Assembly (NCBI GenBank): GCA_964016885.1 | Contig: OZ024741.1 | Span: 404,488,001-404,552,000, forward strand | Source: Eledone cirrhosa | Taxonomy: Eukaryota | Length of the DNA stretch: 64,000 nucleotides | Direction of reading: 5' to 3' | In this document: positions 176-54,180 of the stretch, piece by piece | How the letters are laid out: each line of letters begins with the position of its first letter | How positions within the stretch are numbered: position 1 is the stretch's first letter | The notes under the pieces: model-generated | The model's database searches: none | Seen by the model: only the letters and a program-made list of their open reading frames with translations | What the model was told of the DNA's origin: nothing | Translations under genes and position numbers: made by a program

Positions 176-1021
176 AATTACAGCAGATACAGTTAACTTT
201 TTAAAATTTATTTAAAAACTTTTTCTTATTTGCTAAATCTTGATTATATATAAATATATATATATATATATATATATATATTATATATATATATATATAT
301 GGCTAAAACAGCACGTGCTGTGACCAGCGGCGCCGAATGGCCCCCGACAAACTGGCGGTCAAGGTGATCAAGGTGTTATATATATATATATAGTAATAAT
401 AATAAATTTGAAGACTAAAATCCGAAGAGGGCTCGATAAGGATAAATATATATCAAATATATAAGGACCGTAGAGCAAATATTTATTAAAATAACAGATT
501 AAAGTTTAAGCAAAAATCGCTGCTTTCACCCTCAACAGGATCTTCTGAAACAAAAAAATCAATCTGTGAACGCAGAAGTAAATATTTCGAAAACGTTGCA
601 ACCGAAGGAAGACAGGGAGACGATACTTTGGTTCGTGGAAACGTTCCCTGGCAAAGAACGAAACAACGAAGATAATACGTCATTATGTGGATCGAGGGAA
701 CAATTACACATAAAGATAAAACCACGTTTATGGTATAACTGAAGTCTATGTAGGAAACCGAATGATTCTCGGCTTCAGAGTTAAGAATAATGTAAATAAA
801 TTACAGAAGTAATTGAAATCAACAAAAATTAAATATATAAATTCACGCATCCATAAACGTACATACACATGCATACGCAAACACACCCGCCATGGGTATG
901 CAAATACAAGCACGTACACAAAAAAAACGCACGCACATACAGAACACAAGCAACGCCTGTACCCGCACACATACGAATGTATACACCAAATACACATAGA
1001 AATATATATATATAAATATAT

Positions 1022-1640
1022 ACAATATGTTGAAAAGGTAACACACTAGAGAGAGATATACAGTGCGCTATCAATAAAACAGGGAAAAGCCACCGTGATA
1101 TTTTGCTCCTTATAACATTCTTTTCTCTCTCTCTGTTTGGTTGACCACACTTCTCTGAGTGGTTTTGGGCTGCCCTTTCTAGCAGCTCGTCCCTCAGAGG
1201 CCACTGGTTCACTGCCCTTAAACACGCTGTGACTTCTCTCTCCCACGTGTAGCTGGACAGTCACTTTTAAAATTCTCTTAGTGTTGTCTGAAATGTATAG
1301 CCTTACACACACTGAGGAACCGAGGTTATTCCATTTCTGTGAACAACTTACTGGCGAAACAGATCTCTTTGGATTTGTACGTGTGTTATATAGTTATAGA
1401 GGTATTTATTTACGCTTTAATTTATATTTATAATTATCGTGTCTATAGTCTACCTTTCATAGGTTATAGATTCCATACACTGGTGGTTTTTCCCTGTTTT
1501 ATTGATAGCGCACTGTATATCTCTCTCTAGTGTGTTACCTTTTCAACATATTGTATTTTAAAGAGCTCAGGATTTCTTCTCCTTTGAGCACATTATTTAC
1601 AGGGAATGGCGAGAGTCTATGGCTCCGTTAATTTATCGTG
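1022..1640 (+). mobile_element. Fold-back PLE-type 3' end (family E) nested in a TA tract of family D
   Basis: 1022-1094 is the inverted copy of 1481-1554. Contains an HHR. Absent from the family D copy at 13.5-14.9 kb. Confidence 0.75.
1305..1386 (+). ncRNA. Type I hammerhead ribozyme with stable stem III
   Basis: acacaca-CTGAGGA-(stem II)-GAAA-cagatct-cttt-ggattt-GTA-cgtgtgt. Confidence 0.7.
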
Positions 1641-2089
1641 ATATATATAAATATATAAATATATAAATATGTGTGTGTGCGTGTATACATATAATTCTAT
1701 AAACGTATATAAATATACACACATAAATACGTATATAACGCGCGCACACACATACCTGCATGTAAATACACATATGTTCGCTAAACGTACGTCAACGAAA
1801 ATACGAAGTACACATATACACACACCCTACATACGTACGAACCCGCATACTCTCACAGACGCAAAACTCACGTATACACATAACCATATGCACATGTACC
1901 AGTATATATAATATAATATATACGCTTATAACATACAAAAGCAAATATACGTACGATATAGTAAACGTACCTTCACAAAACATACAGGTAATATATACTT
2001 ACCTATACAAATAAGTAATCGTATAAACATAACATATACTTAGCTACCACTTCAAGACGTAAATTATCCACGTATAGTTCGTACTATCC

Positions 2090-2720
2090 GTTAGGGTATA
2101 ATGTGGGGCTGTAATACAGGAAAGTTTGTGCAATTTATGTTTACAAGCCCAAATTGACTCTGATATGTTTTTAAGATGTGCTCTTTGGCGTAGAGTATTT
2201 CCAGGGCTTCAACGGCGCAGAGGTCACATGGATTTTGTTTCGTTATACGATCTAGCCCTAGCTAGGATCTCCCAGTGTAACTTATATGGGGTGTGGTTGT
2301 CTTTTTTTTAGATTCCAGATATAAGCTGAAAGCGACGTCATGTTCCTTCTTAAAGGGTTAAGAAAAGGATGGGTATGCATGTAAAGACGCTGCGTGAATC
2401 TATTGTCTGTTAACCCTATGTAAGCCCTACGGGACGTGGGTGTTTCAACCTTACATTTGTAGACATTGTTACTAAAGAGGCATTTCCCGGATAGGGGGCA
2501 GTCAACCCGATCCCTACAATTACAGTTAGTACTAGCTACAGGGTTGCATGTGTTCCTACGGCTAGGTAATTTAGCTAAATCTGAAGCTGTGATATGTGCA
2601 AGGCTAGGAGTCGTAGAGTAAGACATTTTAATGGTATTTCTATTAAAGGTTTTACTATATTTATGTGCTGGGGGGAAATGCTTCATAATAAGGGAGAGAA
2701 AGATCTTAGCTAATGGTGTG
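2090..2720 (-). pseudogene. Frameshifted PLE GIY-YIG endonuclease C-terminus
   Basis: ORF 2282..2755 plus a continuation LHWEILARARSY..PCDLC..CKHK in another frame. Confidence 0.85.
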
Positions 2721-3133
2721 GCCACCTCCATATTATCTTCGTTTTTTCCGTTCATTGCCAGAGAACGTCTCCACGAACCACCTAATAGAATATTAGTCTA
2801 CAACTTCATTTATACCATAAACGTGGTTTTGCATTTGCGTGTAATTGTTTTCACCGCTACAAATAATGACGTATTATCTTCGTTTTTCCGTTCTTTGCCA
2901 GGGAACGTTTCCACGAACTAAAGTATCGTCTTCCTGTCTTCCTTCTGTTGCAACGTTTTTCGAAATATTTACTTCTGCGTTCACAGATTGATTTTTTTTA
3001 GTTTCAGAAGATCCCGTTGAGGCTGAAAGCAGCGATTCTTTGCTTAAACTTTAATCTGTTATTTTAATATATATATATATATATATATATATATATATAT
3101 ATATATATATATATATATATATATATATATATA

Positions 3134-51912: not shown

Positions 51913-51944
51913 TATACATATATATATATGCATATATTTATATA

Positions 51945-53632
51945 TATATTGTTATACTTGGGGAGGGTCATATTTGTGTAATAATATTGTCTTTTTATCG
52001 GTTAATTTAATTAATTCGGTCCTCAATGTTACCATTGACTGACCAACGGTCAAAAATACAGATACAATATAGACACAAACATATATATATAGTCTAACAA
52101 AGTTCTTTCGTTGCACATCTGCAACATCGTCAGTGGTGCTATTATGTTTCCTCCCGTTGTATTGTGTGCCTACGCCATCTTTATTTAGTCTGTTTATTTA
52201 TTTATTTATTTATTGTCTTCTCTGCGCATGCGTTTGCGTGTGTGTATTGTGTTTGATGTGTGTTCGAGTTTGGGTGACTCTGTATTGGTCATTGTATTCT
52301 GTCTTAGTTTACTAGTGTGTGTTTATATGTGCTTGTTGTTATTATGCTTGTGTATGTATTTATTTATTTATACTTCTCTTAGGTCAGTATTGTTTGTTTG
52401 GGTGTTTTTATTCCATTCATTTTTTTCTGTTTAGCCTTGGCCTTCTTATGTTCTATTTCGCTGGCCTCTCTGATTTGCCTATCTGCTGGGTCATTTCTAT
52501 GTTTAGATATCATTCTAATTTCTATGTTGTCTATGTTACCGTCATGTTGTTGTCTGGCGTGTTCTGAACCGTTTTGTCGTCCTTTTAGTTCCCCCCAGTG
52601 TTGGTCTATCCTTTCCCCTATGCTACGAGCTGTCTCGCCTATGTATGTTGTTGTCATGTTTCTGCAAGTACCCTCTGTACATCTTATGCTATAGACTACG
52701 TTCCTAGTTTTACAGTTTATCCGGTGGTTTACTTTACATATAATACATTTCCTATTAGTACAGTGGGTTTTCTTAAAAGGGTAGGTTTTGCTGATCAGGG
52801 ATTTTATGGTGGTTCCTGGCTTTTCTACCACCTTAATCTTTAAGTGGGTCTTTCTCAGGGCCTTTTTATACTGGTTAGCTAATTTCCCTCCAGGGGTAGC
52901 GTCCACAAACATGACACTCTGGTATCTCTGGTTGTCGTACCATGATGTGGCTTTCCCTATCTTATGTCTAGCCCTATCTAAGCTATTCCATGATTTGCTC
53001 CTGTATATGGCAAATTCCTTTCATGTCCAGTTCTATGAGGGTCTCATACTTCTCCGTGGCTCCTTCATATACTTTGATTCTGTCTCTTTGGTTGTAGCCA
53101 GAGAACTGCATGCGATTGATGAAGTGTTGGATGTGTCTTTCCATTTCTGTTGGGTCGCACATGCGGGACACGTTCTTCATCACTCGTACCATGTCTGCTA
53201 TCAGAATATTAAACTTAACACTACTGGACATTGCTTAGTTTTTGAGTATCAGGTATTTGGAGACCATGGGTTTAGCATAGTGTGAGTGGAGAATTTGGGC
53301 TCTCTCGTCTATAGTGTTAATCCAGAGTTCCGTGTCTAATAGAGATAGTCTATTGTTAGGCTATTTGGAAGTGTAGTCAATAGTTACAGTTATACTCTGG
53401 TGTATGAAATTAGCTATCTGCTGGATTTCTTTCCATTGTGCTACGTTCTAAATCAAACTTGTTAGTACTCTCTTGTGGGGATGTCCTTATTACTATATTG
53501 ATGTCGTCTACGTAACGAGAGTACATGATGGGGTCTATGGAGCTCTCATATATATATATAGATATGAGAGCTCCATAGACCTCATCATGTACTCTCGTTA
53601 CGTAGACTACATCAATATATTAATAAGGACAT
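51945..53632 (-). mobile_element. 5'-truncated Penelope-like element (Naiad- or Neptune-like): RT, Cys linker, GIY-YIG, HHR
   Basis: MYSRYVDDINI, ILHSHYAKPM, KVVEKPG..CTNRKCIIC..C..VVYSIRC..YIGETARSIGER. HHR CTGACGA..GAAA at 52096-52136(-). 3' terminus resembles family C. Confidence 0.9.
52379..53550 (-). pseudogene. Disrupted PLE RT-EN ORF
   Basis: ORFs 52379..52912 and 52983..53231 plus upstream frames with stops and frameshifts. Confidence 0.85.
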
Positions 53633-53901
53633 ATATTTTCCTATATATATATGCATATATATATAGGAAAATGTTCAGGAACCCGACTTTAGTCCAGAAA
53701 TAGCCGTCGAAACTGCTTGAGCTCTGCCGACGGGATTCCTGAACGTATTCCTATTCCCCACTCTACTACCCAAAGTATCGAGTACTCTGGTATGTTATGG
53801 TCCACGTGCTTCCTTACCACACTTCCTTCGTTATATATATATATATATATATATATATATATATATATATATATATATATATATATATATATATATATAT
53901 A

Positions 53902-54180
53902 TTTAATTAGAAAGTGAACAACACAAAATATAACTACTCCATTACCAAAGGTTTCTGGTACCCAGACGATAATAATATACGTATGGATCGGTCGTCAGAA
54001 TAAGATGTTATGGATAAAAAATATATAAAATATATCTAAAAGATATATAATTCTGGGATCCAGAAACCTTTGGTAATGGGGTAGTTATATTTTGTGTTGT
54101 TCACTTTCTAATTAAATAGCTCTGTTGTATACATAGAGCACTCTTTTTGTACTTTGCTTTACCTTCGGAATTACCTAACA
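53902..54180 (+). mobile_element. Fold-back PLE end (family O)
   Basis: 53902-53964 is inverted at 54051-54115. HHR 3' half GAAA-cctttg-GTA, then a tail. Confidence 0.7.

Follow-up and report, generated by a model that had tools for sequence, protein, structure and literature searches.

Insertions of Penelope-like elements (PLEs) can be complex. In the available text of PMC8557442 a truncated copy is accompanied by an adjacent inverted copy, a 30–40-bp tail that is often one-ended and a TA bias, and the mechanism is left undefined. Head-to-head palindromes were explained in PMC3846280 by self-priming on an antisense template, and inverted pseudo-long terminal repeats (pLTRs) and extensions are listed in PMC8969392. 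Hammerhead ribozyme pairs on opposite strands, and a U3-A8 variant, were described in PMC4209133. For Poseidon PAc of Anolis, both strands were cut and extended in vitro, and two internal start sites bounded the tail with no strand difference in bulk (PMC11167929; Frangieh et al. 2024). These and later statements refer to the available portions of each source. The inverted-plus-tail layout, TA targeting, hammerheads and in-vitro two-strand extension from two starts are thus already published. Here we describe PLE-derived fold-backs in a 64,000-nt stretch of the Eledone cirrhosa genome (the window; G000:C2:404488001-404552000), and we report that the two ends of each fold-back are coupled in a nearly strict manner.

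The window fold-backs resemble published complex PLE insertions (PMC8557442, PMC3846280) in having head-to-head arms, a tail at one end, partial tandems, 5' truncation, a (TA)n bias and hammerheads in the terminal repeat. They differ in the tail, which in those papers is optional or often one-sided and 30–40 bp long, whereas here it measured 26–144 nt and was one-sided in 115 of 117 clean pairs. The explanation differs as well, in that the available text of those papers invokes endonuclease resolution or antisense self-priming and not coupled two-ended priming. Poseidon PAc is comparable for its both-strand cutting and extension, two tail-bounding starts, AT-rich target and uncleaved hammerhead RNA template. 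However, it was studied in a bulk assay whose available account contains neither start-site pairing nor a link to inverted insertions, and its start is described as non-homologous to the cut DNA, whereas the proximal sites described below overlap TA by 3–10 nt.

The window has 36% G+C and about 95 TA tracts. Inverted pairs were detected by self-comparison after TA masking, as unmasked self-BLAST was swamped by TA. Families B, C and D were named after motifs in an earlier note on this DNA, and letters A, E, F, H, J, K, N and O were assigned in the follow-up. We use P for the proximal, family-fixed end of an arm and D, when it denotes a site, for the distal end beyond an additional tail. References mapped back to the window gave 19 head-to-head insertions from ten families (six of B, three each of C and D, and one each of A, E, F, J, K, N and O), set in (TA)n and each made of one P arm and one D arm (Table 1). 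The inverted pairs bounded by TA tracts that the earlier note had reported were seen again by both the masked self-comparison and the reference mapping, and its fixed ends for families D (ttattttaata), C (aacaatat) and B (ttcctat) were in place in all three, three and six window insertions, respectively. Its figure of more than ten families with the full architecture became ten in the window; the family H element there retains the fixed end at its left side only, the right arm being broken in a (TC)n run, although genome copies of family H follow the rule. Its distinction between a short and a long arm was misleading, because the tail-less arm is often the longer one.

We then turned to the 3.0-Gb assembly, where candidates ranged from at least 164 to at least 1985 per family, and took the 30 top matches for each of 11 families (330 loci). 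Two sharp end positions were found among the genome copies of all 11 families, with tails of 26–144 nt. The 143 countable pairs comprised 135 P+D, seven D+D and one P+P; restricted to clean terminal ends, 115 of 117 pairs were P+D (binomial p about 1e-31 against 0.5). The uncounted loci (169 of 330) had no partner in the 3-kb locus, a TA tract between the arms or a broken end, and a further 18 were set aside as duplicates, including, to be conservative, two copies at other places that had identical junctions. Inspection of the seven D+D rows showed that two were P+D, two were internal tandem junctions and one was unreadable. One pair counted as P+D (L059) probably belongs to another repeat with a captured D tail. 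Overall the ends were used about equally (176 P and 121 D focal arms; 17 P and 10 D among TA-bounded solo arms). Because both ends are common, independent choice predicts that about half of all pairs would be of the same type.

The rule was also seen outside this sample. In a tail-anchored sample of 90 loci from families H, D and J, 33 had an adjoining partner, which was P in 30 cases (two of these pairs were already in the main sample) and an internal tandem junction in three. For kilobase-scale arms of family H (20 regions extended), 10 of 10 among the pairs listed were P+D, and extended loci yielded further P+D pairs in families E (4), C (1) and J (2); extension of 11 single-armed family N loci found no partner. 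We concluded that in all 11 families, and in at least two types of PLE, the two ends are coupled almost strictly; this coupling is the addition to what is published. The earlier note had understated this point, namely that the two ends are not chosen independently of each other. Neither the one-of-each rule nor twin priming for PLEs was stated in the literature searched, older primary papers and supplements lying outside it.

The window fold-backs are best explained as truncated ends of endonuclease-positive PLEs, a known kind of insertion. The pLTR or partial tandem, the inverted truncated copy and the tail by which PLEs are recognized were all found. Families C (L169), E (L151) and H (L356) are tied to reverse transcriptase (RT) and GIY-YIG frames lying directly upstream of the arms, in sense, and this linkage recurs at 88–100% identity in many loci. 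Locus L151 presents the full textbook layout: it opens with an inverted P arm, its first repeat continues through D into coding sequence, frames of RT and GIY-YIG type follow, and it closes with a D end against TA; its protein has DKG, Cx4CxxC and CCHH-like motifs. Family C has RT and endonuclease (EN) frames upstream, and family H a 709-amino-acid frame with DKT, CxCx5C, and CxxC and CxH around the last EN motifs. The family H parent thereby shows the traits of the Hydra clade (DKT, a CxCx5C linker, no CCHH, CxxC/CxH and a TA target; RWK lies outside the frame), resembling that clade in its C-terminal EN and TA targets (PMC8557442, section 11); family D shares the linker. In contrast, families E and C appear to be other C-terminal-EN types (DKG or NKSG, a Cx4CxxC linker and CCHH-like motifs) on a comparison of motifs only. 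The long arm of family D carries the EN part only of a frame, 39% identical to the family H parent protein and with a Hydra-type linker. No consistent sense-linked coding frame was present in the loci examined of families A, B, J, O, K, N and F; two family B loci have a Hydra-like EN end upstream, and families A and K are tandem units without protein. The earlier note had called the families unrelated. At the DNA level this holds, with no pairwise similarity among the 11 references at E<1e-3, but all families that could be traced are PLEs and seven share a tail hairpin, pointing to a common origin.

Judged from sequence, hammerhead-like motifs are present in nine of the 11 families (C, D, A, O, K, N, F, J and B). 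The claim that all families bear them failed for family E (4.9-kb full unit included) and, in sense, for family H, where the motif scan found no recurring hammerhead. The motif recurred at a fixed distance from P in families C (22/29 copies), D (13/28, core CAGAAGA), A (14/27), O (12/29), K (9/11, U3-A8 core), N (15/29) and F (29/30). In family B it was found in one of 28 copies, most B arms being cut inside helix II, and in family J it was found by eye and missed by the relaxed scan. That scan gave 16 matches in the window against 2–3 in shuffles, and a strict scan gave only six. Rfam returned HH9 alone, for family K and below the gathering score, along with many sub-threshold microRNA matches on the fold-backs. 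Because the motifs read outward on the arms, both arms have their 3' ends against the TA flanks and meet head to head; priming of a cDNA by each 3' end of the target would produce this geometry. A bulged hairpin, RCTC...NN-GAGYNC, starts 0–8 nt after P in seven families (D, A, J, O, N, H and F); in family B a tail hairpin was recognized by eye. Minimal PLE hammerheads and non-LTR (long terminal repeat) retrozymes (PMC4209133; bioRxiv 10.64898/2026.07.22.740005) are similar in their minimal type I motifs, U3-A8 variant, opposite-strand pairs 100–700 bp apart and protein-less tandem units (as in families A and K), but the available text of these sources leaves end geometry untreated.

Arm reach was measured against linear copies, which resolved 119 of the 135 P+D pairs; a first comparison was invalid because other fold-backs had served as references. 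The P arm reached further in 43 pairs, the D arm stopped in the tail or at P in 17, the D arm reached further in 24, and the arms were equal in 35. Taken together, the P arm had the greater 5' reach in 60 of the 119 pairs. The presence of both classes means that one target-primed, snapped-back cDNA cannot build them. Junctions were distinct in 111 of the 119 pairs, with a spacer above 50 nt in 60 and no sequence common to the arms in 13, which argues against few masters and against the loss of perfect palindromes. Overlaps of 1–16 nt occurred at 78 junctions, none at 13 and extra bases at 25 (alignment-based values, and inflated). The junction is mostly variable, as the earlier note had said, but hot spots exist at a near-palindrome in family E, in helix II in family B and at the apparent 5' end in family C. 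Variants private to an insertion were present on both arms at 39 of 12,877 sites (0.30%), versus 10 of 134,565 (0.007%) for random arm pairs, and the same template or source for both arms is favoured. An origin as miniature inverted-repeat transposable elements (MITEs) or other DNA-transposon fold-backs does not fit the asymmetric ends, the lengths of 110–1600 nt and more, and the distinct junctions.

Both sites have a relation to the target. P sites overlap (TA)n by 3–10 nt in all 11 families (background 16–40%), and D sites by 3–4 nt in six of the seven families whose continuation was seen, which suggests primer annealing. Some D arms end at the P site (L354, L392, L423 and L456), and eight of 90 ended within 14 nt of P, a count confounded by TA microhomology. 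One paralogous empty site was identified: family A lies in a TA run of family D insertion 1, and insertion 3 has an uninterrupted, imperfect TA run. Empty-site matches for eight of 140 elements were not counted, the one checked in detail being a simple-repeat coincidence. A 17-nt interrupted repeat flanks the family A insertion of the window. P ends and strand-switch joints of these families are present in read-derived contigs and raw reads; no contig among those listed spans a window junction with 31 nt on each side, and bins across the junction at 8744 had a depth of 4–5 in one run.

We consider it probable that these PLE ends arise in (TA)n by coupled priming from both cut strands, followed by joining of the cDNAs. 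Both cut target strands would prime reverse transcription together, one at P and one at D. Both sites would be held by one complex, probably a dimer, and would probably lie on a single RNA. The distal cDNA would either stop in the tail or pass P by displacing the other cDNA, giving a palindrome; the two cDNAs would be joined in mid-element through short overlaps, and single-armed copies may be events in which one cDNA was lost. More tentatively, and with slightly less than even confidence, we propose that at least three PLE lineages use an obligatory, asymmetric form of twin priming by one dimer on the tail of one RNA, such that inverted pLTRs, one-sided tails and hairpins are products of one reaction. 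In Hydra-type families the dimer may bind the tail via the shared bulged hairpin, the two TA 3' ends of one cut may anneal to the two fixed TA-like registers, and the same RNA would be copied twice with strand displacement. In L1 twin priming, both target strands prime and the inverted arm is joined by microhomology, which yields an inversion without duplication and with a variable second site. The window families, by contrast, use two fixed sites and usually carry the segment 5' of P twice.

The earlier note had proposed two-site, two-strand priming and subsequent joining, and this proved compatible with every genomic test run. It is less novel than implied, because its key steps, both-strand cutting and extension and two internal start sites, have been obtained in vitro for another PLE (PMC11167929). 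Tabulation of ends, junctions and flanks over the 330 top-scoring loci gave sharp rather than random ends and mostly distinct junctions; for empty (TA)n sites the yield was the one paralogous case, with no signal of target-site duplications (TSDs).

Several results count against coupled priming by PLEs. Three same-type pairs are genuine (L093, P/P; L030 and L072, D/D), and the samples are top-scoring, hence young, copies. The 35 pairs with equal arms are non-discriminating. Only 19 of 89 pairs had the own partner as the strictly closest arm, and arm divergence was 3.1% within pairs versus 3.9% in random pairs; this weak nearest-partner result makes the use of one RNA less secure, and gene conversion could yield the shared variants. 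No excess of TSDs was found (9 of 122 pairs versus 9.4 ± 2.7 in shuffled data), although TA flanks hide TSDs. Moreover, the available text of PMC11167929 describes start-site use as no different between the strands and the start as non-homologous to the cut DNA. As for the proteins, the PLE clade calls for families C, E, H and D, and the EN assignments, are motif-based and hence provisional; Pfam matched RVT_1 among 11 frames only in L151 (E 1.6e-6, just below the cut-off) and in one unrelated RT of a long interspersed nuclear element (LINE), and PDB searches of the PLE frames gave no match.

The best surviving alternative, which we regard as unlikely, is self-priming, in which an antisense RNA or single cDNA folds back and serves as its own template; the endonuclease would then make two staggered cuts to trim the hairpin, which is inserted. 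This has been proposed for head-to-head Penelope palindromes (PMC3846280), and staggered trimming would also yield one P and one D end. It accounts for private variants on both arms, for the junction overlaps (78/119) and for hot spots at near-palindromes, and the TA-like sequence at P and D is what one would expect of an endonuclease target. However, the second arm of a snapped-back cDNA can neither outreach the first in the 5' direction nor carry an uncopied tail, whereas P outreaches in 60 and D in 24 of the 119 pairs. A fixed staggered cut would also place the loop on one arm type only, and in 13 pairs the arms share no sequence. The pairing rule favours coupled two-ended priming, a mechanism that we infer, over the published self-priming.

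A slightly less likely alternative is that both strands prime on separate RNAs in a dimer with fixed, differing start registers, so that the coupling lies in the protein. A dimer is predicted in PMC11167929, and this scheme fits the pairing and the independent truncation and would duplicate the shared segment completely with no strand displacement; it also fits the weak outcome of the single-template nearest-neighbour test (19/89). It is opposed by the 40-fold excess of insertion-private variants on both arms, by the same 6-nt deletion at the P site of both arms of L030 (the P site is missing on both) and by the D arms that end at P, though TA microhomology could also produce the latter. A perfect palindrome that runs into TA is unstable and difficult to assemble, and a few identical junctions lie on different chromosomes (family E groups of four and two), but independent ends with loss of same-type palindromes, P+D masters re-amplified in a MITE-like manner, or assembly artefacts are very improbable explanations, because the rule holds with spacers above 50 nt (60 pairs), with kilobase arms (10/10) and also where no arm is shared, distinct junctions make up 111 of 119, the arms are about 3% divergent, and P ends and strand-switch joints occur in read-derived contigs and raw reads.

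Table 1. Fold-back insertions and associated features of the window (positions in nt of the window; left and right as on the forward strand)
Feature	Position	Strand	Structure
Family D insertion 1	393..3066		D arm minus, with tail 393-479, 3' region and GIY-YIG-like frame 2282-2797
Family D insertion 1, P arm	about 2764-3066	plus	family A insertion nested inside insertion 1
Family A insertion	1020..1639		P arm 1020-1094 minus; D arm 1095-1639 plus; nested in family D TA run
Family A insertion, hammerhead-like motif	at 1312		on D arm
Family D endonuclease-like frame	2282..2797	minus	CxCx5C linker (motif as in the available text of PMC8557442, section 11)
Family E palindrome	3134..3567		D arm 3134-3368 with 33-nt tail; P arm 3369-3563; hammerhead not found
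Family B insertion	6392..6583		P left, D right
Family B insertion	6616..6805		D left, P right
Family B insertion	7782..7979		D left, P right
Family C insertion	7984..8569		P left, D right; outward hammerhead-like motif of minimal type I at 8323
Family D insertion 2	8585..8817		D left, P right
Family H element	10240..12304		left arm 10240-10672 with P end; right arm ends abruptly in (TC)n
Family H right arm, endonuclease frame end	10672-11200		interrupted by a repeat resembling a short interspersed nuclear element
Family B insertion	12845..13054		P left, D right
Family D insertion 3	13523..14927		D arm 13523-14838; P arm 14833-14927
Family D insertion 3, TA run	14270-14298		empty counterpart of family A site
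Family F insertion	19268..20057		short D arm left, long P arm right
Family K insertion	20084..21082		tandem unit of 316 nt; P left, D right; hammerhead variant, U3-A8 core
Family J insertion	22337..22822		D left, tail 144 nt; P right; both arms with hammerhead-like motif
Family C insertion	37598..38014		D left, P right
Family N insertion	38278..38562		P left, D right
Family B insertion	49763..49964		P left, D right
Family C insertion	50020..50623		D left, P right; arms 98% complementary
Family B insertion	53666..53831		P left, D right
Family O insertion	53903..54179		P left, D right; hammerhead-like motif on P arm

Different families also lie back to back in the same TA tracts and form clusters (6392-8925, 49763-50734 and 53666-54199), in which every insertion is TA-flanked on both sides. 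Many family C arms start just before AAGATGGCG (L002, L006, L013-L016; window 8248-8262), which we take to resemble a YY1 initiator site; this common start may mark where the RNA of a short non-autonomous form begins. A single-armed PLE on the minus strand (51950-53632), related to the family C parent (54–67% protein identity) and with the same P-type end, carries a hammerhead-like motif (52133) as well as a 150-nt hairpin at 53481-53632, centred on a TA run in its RT-coding part, which is another type of inversion. A C-related family with the same terminal motif occurs at 41387-41692, which looks like another P+D pair, and at 10102-10190. Other single-armed, TA-bounded elements with hammerhead-like motifs lie at 96-175 (+), 13260 (+), 21294-21253 (-) and 5089-6347 (+), and 5107-5394 codes for a Hydra-type endonuclease end.

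Tails also occur alone. A family O tail-only fragment lies between TA tracts at 38166-38216, and family D has similar tail-only solos (L428, L429 and L437). Other family D tail fragments (L038, L045, L053 and L059) have apparently been captured by another repeat, and the motif ahead of them is presumably a Helitron-like 5' motif. Family K forms an array of more than 20 kb at G000:C2 about 207.687-207.712 Mb (L233-L251), which starts with an inverted D-ended arm at TA and resembles a retrozyme-like satellite. Outside the families, the window contains small inverted repeats (3874-3989, 4034-4117, 21444-21507, 38991-39044, and 3687-3740 with 3986-4038), a degraded LINE with an RVT_1 match (60896-63973, minus), a 3-kb self-similar satellite (44900-48100) and a tandem array with a 64-nt period (33081-34181).

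The origin of PLE inverted-plus-tail insertions is named as an open question in the available text of PMC8557442, and the published antisense self-priming fits the counts obtained here poorly. The one-of-each rule is a sharp prediction for the existing in-vitro PLE system. The rule also implies that retrotransposons keep seeding a TA-rich animal genome with palindromes and hairpin RNAs, and that many of these would be mis-annotated as MITEs or microRNA precursors.

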